A stretch of 61,393 nt of DNA, the filler included, from Globobulimina sp. (Eukaryota): NCBI GenBank assembly GCA_003354225.1. It is 17 parts of 17 records of this genome, joined end to end, with 100 filler letters (N's around TTAATTAATTAA, not from the genome) between each part and the next. Parts side by side here need not be neighbours in the genome. Positions count along the whole stretch, not along the records: positions 32,566 to 36,082 come from PIVH01002603.1; 16 more parts are not named here. The stretch is one strand, 5' to 3'. A program made the translations under genes and the position numbers. Below the pieces are notes generated by a model. It was not told the origin of the DNA. It saw only the letters and a program-made list of their open reading frames with translations, and ran no database searches. Shown here one piece after another: positions 2,304 through 36,182 of the stretch (positions within the stretch are counted from its first letter, which is position 1; each line of letters starts with the position of its first letter).

Positions 2304-3519
2304 TCATTGCTTAATTGTCAAATAATCATAACCCCACTTACTATCAGCTTTTATATTCCATTTTTTATCATTAAATCTTTGTTTCACTGACTCATTCAAA
2401 ATATCACTTAACCAGGTTTTATCACTTCCATATCCTATCCTTGCTTTAATAATATATTTAATGGATGATTTGTATGATTCAATCGACGATAAAAATGATA
2501 ATAAACTAAATCTATATTCTGTATATCCATCTGTTGTATGAATAATCTTACCTCCGAAACCAATAGCCCAACCTGTTTGGTCATCTGTAAAAAACACGCC
2601 TTCGTATGCATTATTTGGTGGAGGACTTTGTGGGATCCAGTTCTCACCACCGTCGATTGAGTATTCGATTGCAACTTCGATAATGCTGTTGCTGTCCCAC
2701 GTGATTTCTGTAATGCTTCCCGTAACAAGCTGCTCATCGCCATTGGGGCTTGTCAGGCTGATCGTTCCGAAACTTTCGATGGCAACGCCAAAGTCCTTGC
2801 CAGCCGACATCGAAGTATAGTTGTTTCCCGGAGGCACGTCTGTTTGTCCATCCTCATTTGCGCCCCAGCCGGTAATGGAACCGTCCGTCTTGAGAGCAAG
2901 GCAGAAGTATTCACCAACTGCGATACCTGAGTTCTCAGAATCGTCCGGTGCATTGGTGACCTGGTTTTTACTGTCATCTCCCCAAACAGCCAGTGAACCG
3001 TCTTCCTTCAAAGCAATGCTGGTATACCCACCGGCTGATATTGCACTAAAGACGCCTTCTTCAGGAGCATCACCGGTAGCGCCGAAATAATCAAATCCCC
3101 ATGCTGCCACGCTGCCATCGGCTCTTAACGCGACAGAATGATAATCACCGGCTGCAACTGCGACAAAGTCGGTACCCTGTGGGTCCGGGTCTGCTGTATT
3201 TACGAATCCCCATGTTACGACCGAACCATTTTCCCGAAGGGCAACACCATGGAAATCGCCGGCATCAACGGCAGTGAAATCCTCGCCATCGGGAACATCC
3301 AGACGACCAGAATTGCCATTACCTACAGCTATCAATACGCCCTCTGCAGTGAGTCCAACAGAGAAGAGACTTCCTGCGGCAATCTGAACATAAAATTCGT
3401 CAGTCGGAAGGTCCTGCTGTCCGGCAGTGTTCAAACCGAACCCTTCGAAGGTTCCGTCTAATCGCAAAGCCATCCCGTGATTAAAGCCAGACGACACGCT
3501 GTCAAAATCGTCGCCTTCC
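2304..3519 (-). CDS. Bacterial-type RCC1/BLIP-II repeat protein fragment, apparently chimeric at its C-terminus
   Basis: Repeats of the form AV.AG..H.VALR.DGSV..WG, then SPNGDEQL..GS..EITW and IEYSIDGGENW. GC-richer and intronless from 2640 to 3519. Followed by a YCF48/BNR-like piece (FFTDDQTGWAIGFGGKIIHTTDG) and an unrelated AT-rich tail. Confidence 0.7.
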
Positions 3520-3619
3520 NNNNNNNNNNNNNNNNNNNNNNNNNNNNNNNNNNNNNNNNNNNNTTAATTAATTAANNNNNNNNNNNNNNNNNNNNNNNNN
3601 NNNNNNNNNNNNNNNNNNN
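3520..3619. other. Artificial contig linker (44N-TTAATTAATTAA-44N); 16 copies in the window
   Basis: Identical 100-bp spacers start at 3520, 7139, 10758, 14377, 17995, 21613, 25231, 28849, 32466, 36083, 39700, 43316, 46932, 50548, 54164 and 57779. They carry stops in all six frames, and contig lengths never increase along the window. Confidence 0.99.
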
Positions 3620-25330: not shown

Positions 25331-26248
25331 CTCAGATATACCAATATTAAAATTGCCAACAAATGGACTTATTTTAAGTTTCCAGAATTTCTGTTGTCCG
25401 AAACCAATTATTTGAGTGCCAAAGGCATAATATCTGAGATGCTTATTTCGTTCATGTATCCTGCTCACAGAGTTTCTATTATTGTCAATTGAAAGCATCG
25501 CATTCGTTTTATATTTGTTCCATGATTCAGGCACATCGTTTTTAATATGCTTCCAATCCATGTTCGTCAGACATGTTTTACTCAATTTATTGCCACATAG
25601 TTTGTGAATTTCATTATAATTTTTAGCGCAATAAAACACAAAATAGTAATAATAGCATAATTCAATGAGTTCATTTGGAATATTCGAATAATGTCTGCAA
25701 AAACCATAAACTATGATATGTTCGTATATAATATCTCTTTGTTGTGTAACACGACATGGTGAAATTTGTTTATTTTTACATAAATCTGTGATAATTGACT
25801 CTATTATACATGGTGGTATTTCTTGTTTATATCTATCAAATCCAAAACGAAATATTAATGATAATAATTTAGGCTCAATTATTTGTGATAAGTCATGTAG
25901 ATATTTTATAATTTGTTTCTTTGACAATTTGAATATTTCTTGTCTGATTTGAACAAATTCAAGCGCTTTCATAAATTTTTTATCCTTTGTTATTTTGTTG
26001 ATGTTGCAGTTATATTTTACATGGAACTGCATATTTGAAGGTAAAACATTTAACATCTTGGATTGTAATGATGATGAAAAACTGCTGCAATTGAATAAAT
26101 ATCCCAATCCACAATCAACTATTTTCCCAAATAACTCAGATTTAGCTTTTTGATAAAATAACACTACCCACAAAGGAATAAAATCGCATAAATCATCAAA
26201 TAATAAAGATACAAAGCAAAATTTATTCTGCCTGGAGCCATGTTTCAT
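25331..26248 (-). CDS. Hypothetical protein with IVYGFCR..IPNELIELCYYYY motif and probable SPRY-like C-terminus, 3'-partial
   Basis: Open frame. AFGTQII...WKLKI...NIGI resembles the start of a SPRY/B30.2-like domain. The upstream part of the tracked ORF overlaps the 3' end of the neighbouring gene and is not real. Confidence 0.55.
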
Positions 26249-26402
26249 TGTTGTGCAAGGATCGAGGATCAAAGTATTGTATACAAAGTACAAAATTGCG
26301 ACAATAGATCTAATAACCACACAATAAAAAAAAAAAAAAAAAACAATATCCCAAAACCATATCAATACAATACAAAAAAAAAAAAAGTGATTATATACTA
26401 AA

Positions 26403-28494
26403 TTATAATTTAATACTTGATTGAAGATATTGCGGATCACATCCATGATAGGGAGCAATTCTTTGTTTGTTTCTGCCAGCAATATTCTTCTTGACTGTAT
26501 CCAAGGAATTCTCGAAATAATTTCGAAACAATTTGCTAGTTTCATTTAATTTTTCATCGAGGAGCACCACGCCCCAACCGGCCCTCTTATCGTTGGGGTC
26601 TGCCGGCCGAGCAATCTGCGGTGGAAGGCGTAGATTCGCATATTGCCAGCCTTTGGATAAAACCACCAAACAATACTCGGCATAGCCGGACACATTGCTT
26701 TGTTTGGCATAATTGCCCACAATTTTGAGTCCAGTAAAATCGGCATCGATGGAATACTCAAAGCTCACCGCAGTGTTTATGTGATGGCTCCATATGGTCG
26801 CATTGCATAGAAAGTGCGTTAAGATGTTAATAATATTAAATTTCTTCAACCTGTATTTGTTGGCAATGCCCAAATTCTGCAAAACCGCCTCATAAAAGGC
26901 CACCAATTCCTTATCCGCCGCTAACAGCGAATCGTCCGTATCTTCGTCGTTATAAAATTGCTGGATGTACTCCTCCACAAATTTGAGTGTTTGCACCCAG
27001 AAATCCCACACATCCGTATAAATGGGATAGATTTCATCGGGCAATTTCTTCATAATCACCACTTTCTTCCTAAATAAGCGGAATCTGTACTTCATTTGGT
27101 CAGAGATGTCGCGCAATTCGCCTTTGTTCAAAACGGGTGCGTCGGACATGCCGTCTTTGATCAATCGCTGCAATTCGCCGTATTTGAAGGCAAAGCATCG
27201 ATGATACAAACCATTTTCACGCAAATATTCGTTAAATACGCGATTGCAATACACGGTGCCCAATGTAAACGGCACCAAAAAGCGCCGGATCGCGTGGTCC
27301 GCACTCAAATATTTCCTCACTGCAGCTATCAAACCGGAGGACTCTCGAAAGCGAGAATGCGCCAACATGTCCACCAAAAATGTCGCCACTGACACCGATA
27401 CCTATTGTAAATATCATATATATATATCGATCAATGATCACCTGCGTTATCCTCGCACTTATAATTAGACACACCTTCCAAGCCCATTTCGCGTGATTCC
27501 ACTCTTGAATGGTAGAGCCCGTTCCGTCCGCAGCCTCGTTCGGCGGTTTGTACGTCAGCCCAGAGTCCGACAGAAAGATTTGCTGTAAATGGTACTTGGA
27601 GTCAAAGTAAGCCGCAGCTCCATACATCTCAAAGCCGCTACGCACGCCGTACTGCGCCAGGAAAGTCACGTCGTTAACAAAATAAGTGTCTGGATGCTGT
27701 TGGCTCTTTGCGAGCGGCCCAGTTCTATGCGAGCCGTAGCCGCAGAACGCAATCAATGTGACCCACATATCAGAGGTGTCGCCGTCGAAGGTATCGCCCA
27801 ACAAAGCGGACAAAATTTGGTTTTTGTCGCCTAAGTTGTTCACATCCACTTCCTCCCAATCATTTAATTGCTTTTTTCGCAAAGCGTCCGCGGGCGGATT
27901 GTTCCTCTCGTCTTTCTGCAATGCGTTGATGTTGGAAACGCCATAGATTTGGCCACCAATCGCGCCTTGGAAATAATTGCGAGCCTCGGCGAGGTCGTCT
28001 TTGCTGTCAGACCAGTCTGCTTTGGACGGCGGCTCCGCATTTTCATCGAATGAATGGCCCAATACGCCGTCACTGTATTTGCCATAATAGCACAGATCGG
28101 AGAAGAAGCCCAAATCGCCGTAATATTCATCCACCGCAGGGATGGAATAGATGCTCGCCAGACTCGCGGGGACGTTGCCGCCGTCGAAACAGTTTAAACC
28201 TATGGTCGAGGTGTCATTGTATGGCGGGGGGAAAGTTATGACATTGCGGGGGTCGAAGCCTTGGTCGATTTGGTTGAGCTGATTGCTGCGTTCGTCGCTG
28301 ATCATTGATTTGGTGAAAGAATCGATCTCATCGTTGACTTTGTCCATTGCCTATGTGTTAATTATGTGGATGTATGTAGAATAATGTTGGTGGTGTGGTG
28401 GGAGAAGATGTAGAACTTCTTGTATTATTTGGCTCTTTTCTCTGTCGTCAGGGTCGCCTGATTCTTGTCCCAAGCAATCGCATATATCTGCCAT
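26403..28494 (-). CDS. Lipoxygenase-like protein (probably catalytically degenerate), 3 exons
   Basis: Start MADICDCLG at 28494; introns ~28351-28416 and ~27402-27473. WNHAKWAWK, RKYLSADHAIRRFLVPFTLGTVYCN, YPIYTDVWDFW...VEEYIQQFY, DKELVAFY, RNKQRIAPYHGCDPQYLQSSIKL. Confidence 0.8.
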
Positions 28495-32465: not shown

Positions 32466-32567
32466 NNNNNNNNNNNNNNNNNNNNNNNNNNNNNNNNNNN
32501 NNNNNNNNNTTAATTAATTAANNNNNNNNNNNNNNNNNNNNNNNNNNNNNNNNNNNNNNNNNNNNTT

Positions 32568-32711
32568 TTTATGGATTCACTAAAGGATTCGTGGGATCTG
32601 CCCTTTGGTTATTTGGTTGTTGATTTGAGCCCAGAAACAGATGACTGCATTAGACTTAGAACTAAAATTTTTCCAGACGAGATCACATGCGTATATGTAC
32701 CAAAAAACTAA
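32568..32711 (+). CDS. Polinton packaging ATPase (A32/FtsK-like), C-terminal end only
   Basis: Not in the ORF track. FMDSLKDSWDLPFGYLVVDLSPETDDCIRLRTKIFPDEITCVYVPKN* matches the typical P(Y/F)GYL..DL...T....RLRT.IFP.E tail. Confidence 0.8.
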   Translation, partial: FMDSLKDSWDLPFGYLVVDLSPETDDCIRLRTKIFPDEITCVYVPKN

Positions 32712-32843
32712 TCATTGATGTAGAGAGTGTGAGAGGGAGAGAGAGAGATAAGTTAAGCAAGTATGTGTGTCATATTACATCAGATGTCGTAACCACGAAG
32801 CCATTGTGGCCTGCTCAAACGTGCACTGATAGATTACAATGGA

Positions 32844-32993
32844 TGACGTAATAGTGACACAATAGTTGCACGCTCGGGCAAGCCTGAACATGGTCTCTTG
32901 TATTTTATGCCAATGACACTGCTCGCTGCGGCAAGTTCAGGCATGCCCAAGTTCCATATATATATTCCGGGAACTCAACTTCAGTCATCAGTT
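32844..32993 (+). promoter_or_regulatory. Metazoan-style Pol II promoter: CRE/ATF-like site, two p53-family response elements, CCAAT, TATA, Inr
   Basis: TGACGTAA 32844-51; GGGCAAGCCT-GAACATGGTC 32876-95; CCAAT 32910-14; CGGCAAGTTC-AGGCATGCCC 32929-48; TATATATA 32957-64; TCAGTC 32981-86 and TCAGTT 32988-93. Confidence 0.72.
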
Positions 32994-33035
32994 TAAACAG
33001 AGAGCTGTTTTGGAAAGGGACAATATTATAAAATA

Positions 33036-33449
33036 ATGACATCCAAGAGTGCAGCGAAATATAATGACAAGAATAACAATATGCGCTGTTGGCTGAATAA
33101 ATTCAATGACAAATGGTACGCCCATTTTCAGCAGGAAGTAAAGGAAAAAAAGGATAAAAGAAGAAAGTACATTTACTTAATGGGTCACACCCTTGCTAAA
33201 TTGGAAGGAAAACTGACAGAAACGATTGGTAAACATTGCAGTGAAGGTCAGTGCGAAACTATCGACAAACGTGGCGACTTCGATGTTCAGTTTGGCCCTA
33301 GGCAAGATGGAGGAGGCTATCAGATGAGTGTGGTTTTACTAGAGGAATCAAACAACAATGAACCATGGAGCATCATCGAAATAAATGATTTGGTAGAATT
33401 TATGATAGCTGTTCGCACGTTAAACGTGGAATATTTGAAACATATATAA
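33036..33449 (+). CDS. Polinton accessory protein, unknown function
   Basis: 137-aa ORF downstream of a complete promoter, followed by AATAAA at ~33458. Confidence 0.75.
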   Translation: MTSKSAAKYNDKNNNMRCWLNKFNDKWYAHFQQEVKEKKDKRRKYIYLMGHTLAKLEGKLTETIGKHCSEGQCETIDKRGDFDVQFGPRQDGGGYQMSVVLLEESNNNEPWSIIEINDLVEFMIAVRTLNVEYLKHI

Positions 33450-33525
33450 AAAAGGCTAATAAAATTGATTGCCATTGTTTGTTTTGGTTACTGTCATGTA
33501 TGTATAAATAAAATAAAATTCCGAA

Positions 33526-33864
33526 ATGTCGAAACGATTAAAACAAAACATTGTATTACTTAGGGCATTACGAAGAGCTACCCCTAAGCAAGCCAAAATA
33601 CTGCTTAGCAAGACAAATAGCAGAGAACTTGTACTTTGTTTGTGCGAGATTGCAGATAACATTTTGGCTGGTACAGTTAAACTGACACCAAAACAGAAAA
33701 GAACGTTGTCAAATCACAAAAAAACCCTACGTGTGTTGGCCAATAAAAAAGTAAAAATTTCGGTGAAACGAAAGTTGTTAAATAATCAAAAAGGTGGTTT
33801 TTTCCCAGCAGTCCTTGCACCAGCACTAAGCGTTGCTGCAGCACTCTTAGGGCAATTTTTGTGA
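33526..33864 (+). CDS. Polinton/adintovirus small basic virion protein with adenain-type cleavage site and amphipathic tail (cupiennin-like)
   Basis: LCEIADNIL.G.V.L...K..L..HKK.LR.LA....KRKLL.NQKGGFFPAVLAP pattern characteristic of Maverick small ORFs. TATAAATA at 33503-10. Confidence 0.8.
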   Translation: MSKRLKQNIVLLRALRRATPKQAKILLSKTNSRELVLCLCEIADNILAGTVKLTPKQKRTLSNHKKTLRVLANKKVKISVKRKLLNNQKGGFFPAVLAPALSVAAALLGQFL

Positions 33865-33867
33865 ACA

Positions 33868-34674
33868 ATGGTGGATAAAACTTATCGTAAAATGGCTTTA
33901 GTGCCACAACAGTTGTTAGAAGGGCTGGCTGGTCAGCAACATTTGAATCCTGGTCTTTCACAGTTGCCGCGCCTAGACAATAGTATGCAGGAACTGCTTA
34001 GACAAAAGAACTTGCCCCCTGACCTTAAACACGCTGAATACAGCCAATTGATGCACCATTACAAAACTATGAAAGAGCAACAAATGCGCCCACAAGAACA
34101 GTTTATGCAACCAAATCAGATGATATATCAAGAACCAGTACCGTCAACTGCCATTGGTAGTCAAAATTTGCTTGCACTCCAGCCTACTATGTCTTACACT
34201 GAGCAATACATGCCAGAGATAAATCATGATCAAATCATTGGAAATATGCCAAAAAATTACAAAAACAAAGCGCGTCTGTTGCTTTCCCATCTGGATCGGA
34301 TAAGCAATTTGACATGGGATCAAAAGGGACAATTGATAATCGATGGGCAAACTATTCCCAACACAAACATTGTTGACTTGGTACATGACTACACAAAAGG
34401 CGCCCGACGTGGTGCTCCACCTGAAGGATGGCATACATTTGGCCGTATATTGAGGCAGACAAATGTACCACAAGAAGCAATTGGTAATAAGAAAAGATTC
34501 AACCAAGTAAACAGAACACCAACACCACAGTTGGCAGTAATAGATGATAGCAGCGAAACAGAACTTGGACCAAGCACGAGCAAGAGATCCCCCAGAAAAA
34601 GTAAAAGAACAAAAAAACCAGTTGAAAAATTAACCATGGGCCATGGTTGGCGCCCTTTCAACCAAAAGATATAA
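33868..34674 (+). CDS. Conserved Polinton/adintovirus protein that normally precedes the integrase
   Basis: KMALVP...LD..M..LL....L....K...Y.Q, KARLLL..L....TWD.KGQLIIDG..IP.TNIVDLV.D, P.GW..F...L...NVP..AIGN..R. Confidence 0.82.
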   Translation: MVDKTYRKMALVPQQLLEGLAGQQHLNPGLSQLPRLDNSMQELLRQKNLPPDLKHAEYSQLMHHYKTMKEQQMRPQEQFMQPNQMIYQEPVPSTAIGSQNLLALQPTMSYTEQYMPEINHDQIIGNMPKNYKNKARLLLSHLDRISNLTWDQKGQLIIDGQTIPNTNIVDLVHDYTKGARRGAPPEGWHTFGRILRQTNVPQEAIGNKKRFNQVNRTPTPQLAVIDDSSETELGPSTSKRSPRKSKRTKKPVEKLTMGHGWRPFNQKI

Positions 34675-34734
34675 ACATAAATAAATATGCGTTTATTGTT
34701 ATTCATTTTTCTGTTATCAATTCATTAATAAACA

Positions 34735-34791
34735 ATGGAAAATTTACTCAAAAAATTGTACTACAGCCCTGAAATTACAGGTACATATTAA
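34735..34791 (+). pseudogene. Polinton retroviral-like integrase, first 18 codons only
   Basis: MENLLKKLYYSPEITGTY* matches the L.K.YY.P...G(S/T)(Y/F) integrase N-terminus and sits in the expected syntenic position. Confidence 0.65.
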
Positions 34792-34801
34792 ATAACCTTA
34801 A

Positions 34802-34833
34802 AAACATGCTCGGACATGAATCATATGACGTCA
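34802..34833. promoter_or_regulatory. p53-family response element + CRE module, copy 1
   Basis: AAACATGCTC-GGACATGAAT-CATA-TGACGTCA; imperfect direct repeat of 35251-35282. Confidence 0.7.
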
Positions 34834-34862
34834 CAGTAAGATTTATTATTGACTGTAAAACA

Positions 34863-35201
34863 TTACATATCGGAATGAAAGTAATCAAAAAGTGGCTTCA
34901 GTATTGTATAGGCTTTTCTGGCATCGTCTTTATTATTTTGGAACACTTTTGCTGAAAGTATGGCACCTTCTAGTGTGGTTTCTTTAAGTGTTTGTTCTCT
35001 TGTCCATAATGGGCTATAACCCCAACCCTTTGCAATCTTGCGAAAAAAGCACTTATCACAAGACGCCATTTTGTTCCACACACATTCATTGAATTGTGCA
35101 TTGAAATCTTTACAATGCATAAATGGTCTATTCCTATTTTCCGCTTCACGCCCTCTGCAAAATAACCGTCGACACAATGACTTTCCATGCATTGGAGCCA
35201 T
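34863..35201 (-). CDS. Small Cys-rich Polinton accessory protein, unknown function
   Basis: 112-aa ORF with a minus-strand TATAAAAG (35238-35231) and the p53RE/CRE module directly upstream. Confidence 0.65.
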   Translation of the reverse strand: MAPMHGKSLCRRLFCRGREAENRNRPFMHCKDFNAQFNECVWNKMASCDKCFFRKIAKGWGYSPLWTREQTLKETTLEGAILSAKVFQNNKDDARKAYTILKPLFDYFHSDM

Positions 35202-35230
35202 TTTGGTATGTGGACACGGGCAACTGGTCC

Positions 35231-35303
35231 CTTTTATATTATGTTACACAAAACATGTCCAGGCATGTATCATATGACGTCACTAAATTTTCGAATATAA
35301 ATA
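35231..35303. promoter_or_regulatory. Bidirectional promoter: TATA(-) / p53RE / CRE / TATA(+)
   Basis: TATAAAAG on minus 35238-31; AAACATGTCC-AGGCATGTAT 35251-70; TGACGTCA 35275-82; TATAAATA on plus 35296-303. Confidence 0.72.
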
Positions 35304-35328
35304 AAAATCGCAAGGGTGAATTAGTTTA

Positions 35329-35898
35329 ATGTTTCAAACAAAAGTATGTAAGTGTATGTATAAAATGGAATTATGTAATATTGTGATATGTGGGACGTTC
35401 GGTTGCCCCATTGACCTGAAAAGAGTTACACCATCGGACATAATCAGTGTCGAGAAAAAACAACGGTTTCCAGGCTTAATTGTACGTATTCACGATCCAA
35501 AGACAACAATTTTAACTTTTGGCAATGGCAAAATAGTATGCAATGGAATTAAGAATGTTGAAACAGCAAGAAAAGCTACACAATTGTTAGCTCAAAAACT
35601 GAATTTATTAGGGAACGCGATTAACATTGAAAAAACACTGGATAGCTTGGCAGTTGTTAATATGGTGGCGTCATGTACATTAGACTTTAAGATTAATTCC
35701 GAGCAATTGGCAATGGCCTATCATAGAGAGGCAGTGCTTGAGAAAGAATTATTTCCAGGACTTTGTTTTAAATTAGATGGTGCCACTTTTCTGATTTTTC
35801 ATTCTGGAAAAGTGATAGTTACAGGATTAAAAACATTTGAGTCGATTGAACGTATTTGGACTTGTATGTTTAAAATTTTATATAAGTTTAAAAAATAA
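35329..35898 (+). CDS. Element-encoded divergent TATA-box-binding protein
   Basis: Both TBP repeats are present: NIV...RFPGLIVRIHDPKTTILTFGNGKIVCNG and NMVASC...ELFPGLCF...FLIFHSGKVIVTG. Intronless. AATAAA overlaps the stop codon. Confidence 0.93.
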   Translation: MFQTKVCKCMYKMELCNIVICGTFGCPIDLKRVTPSDIISVEKKQRFPGLIVRIHDPKTTILTFGNGKIVCNGIKNVETARKATQLLAQKLNLLGNAINIEKTLDSLAVVNMVASCTLDFKINSEQLAMAYHREAVLEKELFPGLCFKLDGATFLIFHSGKVIVTGLKTFESIERIWTCMFKILYKFKK

Positions 35899-36182
35899 AC
35901 AGTCAGTGTCGTGATTAAAGTTTTCATACCATTTTTGTTATCGCTTGATGGAGCAATAAAACGTTCAATAACTTAATTCCATATAAACACACAAAACATA
36001 ATATCATCAAACTACAGTATGCTACCTAAATTACGTTGCTAAATGAGTTGCTGCACTCTGGAACACAAATAAATGTGTAATANNNNNNNNNNNNNNNNNN
36101 NNNNNNNNNNNNNNNNNNNNNNNNNNTTAATTAATTAANNNNNNNNNNNNNNNNNNNNNNNNNNNNNNNNNNNNNNNNNNNN

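Follow-up and report, generated by a model that had tools for sequence, protein, structure and literature searches.

Does a virus-like DNA element carry its own TATA-binding protein (TBP) gene under promoters that host stress factors could switch on? This question is raised by positions 32566-36082 of the window, that is, of the whole 61,393-nucleotide stretch of the Globobulimina sp. assembly GCA_003354225.1 that was analysed. These positions correspond to exactly one stand-alone contig of 3517 bases (PIVH01002603.1), flanked by linkers at both ends. An earlier note, made from the sequence, had described it as a Polinton/adintovirus fragment whose TBP gene belongs to a damage-inducible transcription cascade. 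Our analysis showed that the contig is a real, unusual adintovirus/Maverick-like fragment with a selected, divergent TBP gene and a compact, recurrent promoter motif; the damage-inducible cascade is an attractive but hypothetical reading. The reading we prefer, with a probability of roughly 60%, is that the fragment consists of a conserved left block and a lineage-specific TBP cassette, and that its motif-bearing, early-type genes are switched on by host factors. The open reading frames (ORFs) of 137, 112 and 268 amino acids (aa), the minus-strand ORF of 112 aa and the TBP gene were all present as the earlier note described them. The genes and the junction between the two halves are as follows, with the strand given where it applies.

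32568-32711, plus strand: 3' end of an ORF, 47 aa and a stop, open at the contig start (from the ORF listing)
33036-33449, plus strand: 137-aa gene, product with a PUR-alpha/Whirly fold in the AlphaFold2 (AF2) model, conserved in related elements
33526-33864, plus strand: small basic protein of 112 aa with a hydrophobic GGF tail, conserved in relatives
33868-34674, plus strand: conserved 268-aa protein, beginning 4 nucleotides (nt) after the 112-aa stop
34735-34791, plus strand: integrase-like start, 18 codons and then a stop (read by eye)
34774-34775: breakpoint or branch point in public contigs, conserved half versus TBP cassette
34863-35201, minus strand: 112-aa orphan ORF with a Cys-rich N-terminus, TATAAAA 31 nt upstream and AATAAA downstream
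35329-35898, plus strand: TBP homologue by Pfam and PDB matches, 189 aa if read from the first ATG, 177 aa from the probable start at 35365

The identification of the TBP gene was borne out by profile and structure searches. The Pfam TBP family (PF00352) matched with 132.1 bits against a cut-off of 22.9 (E 6.6e-39) and covered two repeats, and solved eukaryotic TBPs in the PDB matched at about 1e-25. A word-indexed search of 5.8 billion proteins returned 31 TBP matches among 100 candidates, none above 37% identity, and the identity to 16 aligned relatives was 31-38%. Four residues, F35, F52, F130 and F145, were invariant in the 17-sequence alignment; we take these to be the phenylalanines that kink TATA DNA, and binding of TATA DNA by the window TBP is predicted from its sequence. 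Read by eye, the first repeat has FPGL as in archaeal-type TBPs, where cellular eukaryotic TBPs have FAAV.

The same sequencing run also contained another variant of the TBP and 268-aa genes, and 13 of the 16 listed differences in the TBP gene were synonymous, as were 10 of 13 in the 268-aa gene. Since these differences are mostly synonymous, the TBP and 268-aa genes are maintained by selection; they are under purifying selection in at least two co-occurring variants. A protein search of IMG/VR found no relative of the window TBP, and an alignment search there gave 26 loci at 26-35% identity. The two loci examined among these 26 (L025 and L029; 10 ORFs) carried Eco57I-type methylases, ribonucleotide reductase and helicases; no Polinton hallmark was found among the 10 ORFs, and both loci look unrelated to Polinton-type elements.

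That the left half is part of a Polinton/Maverick/adintovirus-type element is supported by comparison with related sequences. A profile of 268-aa homologues, with 192 pattern matches screened, identified four metagenomic contigs (L001-L004; 12,538 bases in total), whose proteins are 28-54% identical to those of the window genes. L001 and L004 show the same gene order as the left half, where the 137-aa, 112-aa and 268-aa genes precede the integrase start in this sequence. In L001, a zinc-finger ORF and a minus-strand adenain gene are followed by 164-aa, 120-aa, 110-aa and 268-aa ORFs and an rve integrase, and in L004 the order is zinc finger, adenain, 121-aa, 110-aa and the start of the 268-aa gene; L003 is similar. 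Pfam matched rve (8.1e-11) and Peptidase_C5 (1.9e-6) in L001, and adenain was found in L001, L003 and L004, the latter two copies being 60-77% identical to that of L001. Because the gene order is shared with carriers of two hallmark genes, the left half is tied to this element class, and the assignment made by the earlier note holds for this half, its colinear relatives being contigs with an rve integrase and adenain. The integrase start on the window contig agrees, as judged by eye, with the beginning of the L001 rve integrase at 9 of its first 11 residues. The contig genes lack introns and are closely packed, and TATA and AATAAA signals accompany each of them. Adenain and integrase hallmark genes were not found on the contig or elsewhere in the window, and the contig ends showed no long inverted repeats, which says little for a fragment. 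IMG/VR held no relative of the 268-aa protein or of the 112-aa family, and the prokaryote genome collection gave no relatives.

The 137-aa gene had been counted among accessory genes, an assignment that did not hold, as relatives carry it in the same position (L001 2885-3247; L004 1095-1460). Its product is 28% identical to the 120-aa ORF of L001 (E 3e-14), and neither the protein (E up to 1) nor its two homologues (E up to 10) had a Pfam match. The AF2 model, built from a three-sequence alignment, had a predicted local distance difference test score (pLDDT) of 85.7 and a predicted template modelling score (pTM) of 0.82, and contained two beta-beta-beta-beta-alpha repeats forming one domain. 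Against repeats I-II of PURA this model gave a Z score of 14.6 and a root-mean-square deviation (rmsd) of 2.9 over 127 of 137 residues, compared with Z 8.0 for MRP1/2, 7.0 for Whirly and 4.4 for PC4. Human and Drosophila PUR-alpha held the top ranks in Foldseek (E 1.4e-3, probability 1.00), which gave no match at E 0.001 or better. Over the PUR-alpha structures 8chv, 8cht, 3k44 and 5fgp, the likeness amounts to Z 13.4-14.6 and rmsd 2.9-3.6 over 124-130 residues; the differences are an identity of only 10-16%, the lack of a Pfam match and the lack of a third repeat. In the model, the PUR-alpha match is a shared fold, not proof of shared function. The PUR-alpha-type fold is that of single-strand nucleic-acid binders, and the 137-aa protein may be the element's single-strand DNA-binding or regulatory protein. 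No PUR-fold gene is described for adintoviruses in the available part of PMC8502044.

The promoter regions were examined for p53-type, cyclic AMP response element (CRE) and TATA motifs. The p53 response element consensus consists of two RRRCWWGYYY decamers with a spacer of 0-13, and the CRE/ATF consensus is the palindrome TGACGTCA. The motifs on the contig are as follows.

32844-32851: CRE-like TGACGTAA, a single copy in the contig, none in the other 56,444 bases
32876-32895: p53-type pair A, spacer 0, 1 mismatch
32929-32948: p53-type pair B, inverted relative to A, spacer 0, 1 mismatch
32956-32966, plus strand: TATA-like box ATATATATAT, 80 nt 5' of the 137-aa ATG
33503-33513, plus strand: TATAAATAAAA box of the 112-aa gene, 23 nt 5' of the ATG
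34801-34834: composite copy 1, direct repeat, with p53-type pair 34802-34821, ATCATA and CRE TGACGTCA 34826-34833
35232-35238, minus strand: TATAAAA box of the minus-strand gene, from the sequence
35250-35283: composite copy 2, between the divergent genes, with p53-type pair 35251-35270 and CRE 35275-35282
35296-35306, plus strand: TATAAATAAAA box of the TBP gene, from the sequence

The scan, which required a spacer of 0 and intact C and G cores and allowed up to 2 mismatches, found four p53-type pairs in the contig (at 32876, 32929, 34802 and 35251) and none in the other 16 contigs. Their mismatches to the consensus are, in order, 1, 1, 2 and 1. In 2000 dinucleotide-preserving shuffles the mean was 0.03 sites and the maximum 2; 63 shuffles had at least one site and none had four. 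When spacers of 1-13 were allowed, 1 more site appeared in the contig and 3 in the other 56,444 bases. The perfect CRE TGACGTCA stands at 34826 and 35275, with 1 copy in the other 56,444 bases, where TATAAATAAAA has none. These results indicate that the p53-type, CRE and TATA motifs noted earlier are real and far beyond chance, with four sites versus none and 0 of 2000 shuffles reaching four. IMG/VR gave no exact DNA match for the repeat or the composite motif. By consensus, the motif best fits a p53 response element with a CRE fused to it, and the sites are predicted as such on this best match only.

The motifs are arranged in an orderly way around the genes. The 137-aa promoter runs from TGACGTAA at 32844 through pairs A and B and ATATATATAT at 32956 to the ATG at 33036. 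The minus-strand gene and the TBP gene share a divergent promoter of about 130-160 bp with one TATA box per strand, in the order minus-strand ATG 35201, TATAAAA 35238-35232, p53-type pair 35251-35270, CRE 35275-35282, TATAAATAAAA 35296 and ATGs 35329/35365. The CRE at 35275 stands 13 nt 5' of the TATA box at 35296, and the 34-nt direct repeat, whose copies hold 34802 and 35251, combines a p53-type pair with a CRE. In front of the block formed by the 112-aa and 268-aa genes there is a TATA box only. It had been claimed that TATAAATAAAA stands alone before the gene at 33526 and is present before the TBP gene too, and both copies were located. The claim that each accessory gene has p53-type and CRE-like sites upstream held in part: it applies to the 137-aa promoter and to the divergent minus-strand/TBP promoter, and not to the copy at 34801-34834, which follows the integrase stub and the 3' end of the minus-strand gene and is upstream of no intact ORF.

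According to the preferred reading, the left half would be the lineage's conserved block, made up of the ORF tail, the PUR-alpha-fold protein, the small basic protein, the 268-aa protein and the integrase start. After integrase codon 13, this copy would carry a lineage-specific cassette, the orphan Cys-rich gene and the divergent TBP gene, in place of the rest of the integrase. The motif-bearing genes would be regulatory or replication genes of an early type, with the CATG decamer pair and the CRE as the sites at which sequence-specific host factors activate them. Subsequently, the TBP encoded by the element may act on the element's own TATA promoters, by analogy with herpesvirus TBP homologues. 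The decamer-binding factor is putatively a p53-family protein, this being only the best consensus match; p53 or ATF binding, stress induction and an early-to-late cascade through the element's TBP would be hypothetical further steps.

Several observations weigh against the preferred reading, and they are gathered here and in the next three paragraphs with the explanations that they favor. First, no public contig bridges 34774/34775, the sole unbridged place on the contig. One public contig stops at 34774 and the next begins at 34745, so that they overlap by 30 letters; bridging was defined as 31 letters on both sides, and the overlap is one letter too few. Another contig of the same run leaves at 34774, after integrase codon 13, with 235 unlike letters. 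The 30 letters shown of this branching form stay open in the integrase frame and, by eye, resemble the relatives' integrase there. Because the branching contig continues as integrase, two forms co-exist, one in which the integrase reads on and one with the TBP cassette. The halves may therefore not be joined as written, or the copy may be a defective rearrangement, and it has no intact integrase within the contig.

A non-working arrangement is the corresponding alternative, either as halves joined by assembly or amplification at the shared 30-mer, or as a dead, rearranged or truncated copy with a foreign right half such as a cellular TBP paralogue. It accounts for the sole unbridged place, exactly where the integrase-continuing branch begins, for an integrase ORF cut to 18 codons, for the absence of the TBP gene and the minus-strand orphan gene from all of L001-L004, and for the low depth across 32566-36082 (2.6-11 in the run concerned). 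However, the contig from 34745 reads into the right half from the final 30 letters of the left one, and no loose end enters these shared letters from another left side, which argues, without proving it, that the TBP cassette truly comes after the left half. Both halves contain the p53-type motif, and both have a second variant in the same run with mostly synonymous differences. None of the cellular TBPs found exceeds 38% identity to the window TBP, and the genes are intron-free and tightly packed with their own TATA and AATAAA signals. Public contigs from that run cover most of 32566-36082 with 0 differences, bridging the junctions between the 137-aa and 112-aa genes, the 112-aa and 268-aa genes, and the 268-aa gene and the integrase start, and one contig with 0 differences (34991-35405) bridges the divergent promoter. 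We consider a non-working arrangement unlikely.

The motifs give further points of the same kind. There are fewer than four independent sites, as two lie within one 34-nt repeat and two form an inverted pair, and the copy at 34801-34834, 26 nt to the right of the breakpoint, precedes no ORF that it could drive. L001-L004, which are distant relatives, contained 0 p53-type sites (at most 3 mismatches) and 0 CREs in their 12,538 bases. The CATG decamer pair could be the site of another factor, from a non-holozoan host or from the element itself, with a coincidental likeness to p53 and with CRE and TATA boxes forming ordinary constitutive promoters. The p53 assignment depends only on a degenerate consensus, and the four sites share more than this consensus demands, their right half-site being nearly constant by eye. 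Relatives use different upstream motifs, for example the CCAAT-type boxes seen by eye before the PUR-like gene of L001, and the other window contig tested points to a protist-like organism. On the other side, we know of no other factor family with a tandem zero-spacer RRRCWWGYYY pattern, and the contig shows no element-encoded sequence-specific DNA-binding protein besides the TBP and the PUR-like protein. We regard another factor as a doubtful explanation, albeit the strongest competitor of a host-activated, early-type gene set.

The remaining points concern gene content and host. PolB, capsid, protease and terminal repeats were not found on the 3.5-kb contig, only 2 of the 5 AF2 models built for the 137-aa protein were confident, and the minus-strand 112-aa ORF had no credible relative among 1.84 billion representatives. 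The packaging-ATPase label that the earlier note gave to the 47-aa tail is putative: the 'ATPase tail' at 32568-32708 was not confirmed by any match in Pfam (E up to 10), PHROGs or PDB sequences (E up to 10), and the Atlas gave only unnamed clusters of short proteins. As for the host, an adenylosuccinate synthetase on another window contig had unnamed environmental proteins as its nearest matches (66-87% identity), and its best named matches were from a dinoflagellate, Perkinsus and green algae (49-59%), so that the sole other window contig tested looks protist-like from its sequence.

Positions 1-61393 of the window comprise 17 unrelated contigs of 3515-3519 bases each, arranged by descending length and separated by linkers of the form N44-TTAATTAATTAA-N44. 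As these pieces are unlinked contigs, the neighbors are uninformative about 32566-36082. The tetranucleotide correlation between the contig and the rest of the window was 0.91, within a range of 0.88-0.97, and the contig is not set apart. Some of the other contigs differ in make-up, as seen at 26001-28000 (42% GC) and in the regions 2304-3563 and 26403-28350, and one of them encodes a repeat protein that we presume to be RCC1-like. Given contigs of differing make-up, the assembly may mix organisms.

The full model of the earlier note proposes that host p53 and ATF signalling after DNA damage activates the PUR-like, orphan and TBP genes, and that the TBP then drives the TATA-only structural genes, in analogy to SOS prophage induction. 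It is consistent with four zero-spacer pairs whose CWWG cores are intact, accompanied by TATA boxes and two perfect CREs at promoter positions, with a TATAAATAAAA motif common to the upstream regions of the TBP and 112-aa genes, and with a TBP that is intact and under selection. It also agrees with two reports in their accessible portions, that p53-family genes occur across Holozoa, in animals and their unicellular holozoan relatives (PMC6981761), and that adintovirus-type virion and accessory genes are restricted to animals (PMC8502044). Because the p53 family belongs to Holozoa and these adintovirus-type genes to animals, a holozoan host of the element is possible. Against this, the other window contig tested looks protist-like; all four relatives lack the motifs; only by position are the 112-aa and 268-aa genes termed late; the TATA motif, a mark of late genes in the model, also stands in the promoter of the TBP gene itself; and the copy lacks an intact integrase. 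We therefore judge the full model improbable. Its most far-reaching form is an adintovirus-like virus of a holozoan host, with PUR-fold, orphan and TBP genes wired to p53-family and ATF/CREB stress factors, in which genome damage would wake the element and the TBP would redirect polymerase II to TATA-only structural genes; we consider this a long shot. If true, it would be the first sequence-defined eukaryotic counterpart of SOS-type prophage induction.

The other genes and side observations on the contig are as follows. The 112-aa plus-strand protein and the 110-aa ORF of L001 share 54% identity (E 1e-40). The nearest Atlas clusters of the 112-aa protein are unnamed and labelled Preplasmiviricota and Nematoda (0.95-0.96), and the Adeno_PX cluster scores only 0.79, so a relationship to adenovirus pX is a weak lead. 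For the 268-aa protein, 307 candidates yielded three unnamed homologues (41-44% identity), and the profile gave four loci; the protein had no Pfam match and no fold match, the best Foldseek result against the PDB being E 0.68 for a model with a mean pLDDT of 64.5 and 116 of 268 residues below 50. An identical 12-mer, TGTATGTATAAA, lies at 33497-33508 and 35353-35364, just 5' of the 112-aa ATG and of the second TBP ATG; with a rough chance expectation of about 0.4 such pairs, it may mean nothing. For the minus-strand 112-aa ORF, Pfam gave only a chance-level match (0.045). A bacterial YDG-repeat protein, its sole match (E 4.6e-5), aligned through its repeats and was judged spurious.

In the relatives, a small protein with one C2H2-like zinc finger adjoins adenain (L001 1032-1526; L004 14-487; L003 139-570). 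It matched Pfam zf-C2H2 only at E 0.041 and is not on the window contig; it could be the element's own DNA-binding regulator. At L003 1993-2366, the PUR-like gene is divided over two overlapping frames (66 aa and 70 aa), which suggests a frameshift or sequencing error.

A GA-rich tract at 32720-32752 adjoins the promoter of the PUR-like 137-aa gene on its 5' side, and purine-rich DNA is bound by PUR-alpha proteins. Two other runs of the same sample contained next to no sampled words of the contig, only 31-letter pieces on 32720-32752, which is not evidence of absence. High-depth 31-letter pieces from all three runs matched this tract with 3 mismatches each, indicating that it is a common simple repeat.

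To our knowledge, the mechanism that switches on Polinton/adintovirus-type elements is not known. The contig offers a compact promoter unit of less than 60 bp, composed of a TATA box, a CRE and a p53-type pair, which recurs before three genes of the element. One of these three genes encodes a general transcription factor, and another a protein with the fold of a single-strand DNA-binding regulator. If a stress factor binds the motif, it would provide a handle for inducing such elements in the laboratory and would help to explain their silent persistence. If none binds, the contig would still add a TBP-bearing member to the group and a PUR-alpha-like fold for a gene conserved in at least this sub-lineage. 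The literature search returned no paper linking Polinton/adintovirus-type elements to p53 or to a TBP-driven program, and none joining an adintovirus with a TATA-binding protein.

Comparison with known systems places these features in context. The earlier statement that TBP lies outside the Polinton core set needs softening with respect to the wider group. In Starrett et al. 2021 (PMC8502044; preprint 10.1101/697771), the legend of Figure 5, within the available part of the paper, lists a gene 'similar to TATA binding proteins' in midsize eukaryotic linear dsDNA (MELD) viruses. As this legend lists one, a TBP gene in the wider group has a printed precedent. The likeness to MELD viruses is thus a TBP gene, drawn for one or more midsize linear dsDNA viruses whose PolB is adintovirus-like; the difference is that the accessible section of PMC8502044 concerns datasets of non-animal eukaryotes.

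The resemblance to adintoviruses, Mavericks and Polintons, as far as the available part of PMC8502044 describes them, lies in left-half relatives with adenain, an rve integrase, conserved small proteins and a GGF-tail protein, and in tight packing. Unlike them, the contig is without PolB, capsid, protease and terminal repeats, and its integrase ends after 18 codons. p53-type or CRE promoters are not described in the same portion of PMC8502044, where the words 'p53' and 'promoter' were not found.

In beta- and gamma-herpesviruses, according to the accessible parts of the reports, a virus-coded TBP homologue steers host polymerase II to late promoters with a variant TATA box (EBV BcRF1 and KSHV ORF24 of the Epstein-Barr and Kaposi's sarcoma-associated herpesviruses; PMC4922670, PMC6541308), and BcRF1 is used for late genes (PMC4922670). 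The herpesvirus proteins are large, barely TBP-like and part of a six-protein complex, whereas the protein here is a plain two-repeat core of 177-189 aa. The ATF/CREB site sequence is a recognized feature of adenovirus early promoters. In adenoviruses, a related virus group, the available text of PMC2651774 describes recruitment of E1A to early promoters via ATF factors, and the contig shares with them a CRE/ATF site near-upstream of the TATA box in early or regulatory genes. The difference is that no E1A-like activator is visible on the contig and that the CRE here is fused to a p53-type pair. Finally, endogenous retrovirus long terminal repeats (LTRs) and other repeats carry p53 sites, as stated in the accessible portions of PMC3032802 and PMC5732690, which is a likeness in that mobile or virus-derived elements bear strong p53-type response elements. 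Those cases are primate LTRs and Alu repeats affecting host genes, whereas the predicted sites here lie in the promoters of a DNA virus-like element's own genes.

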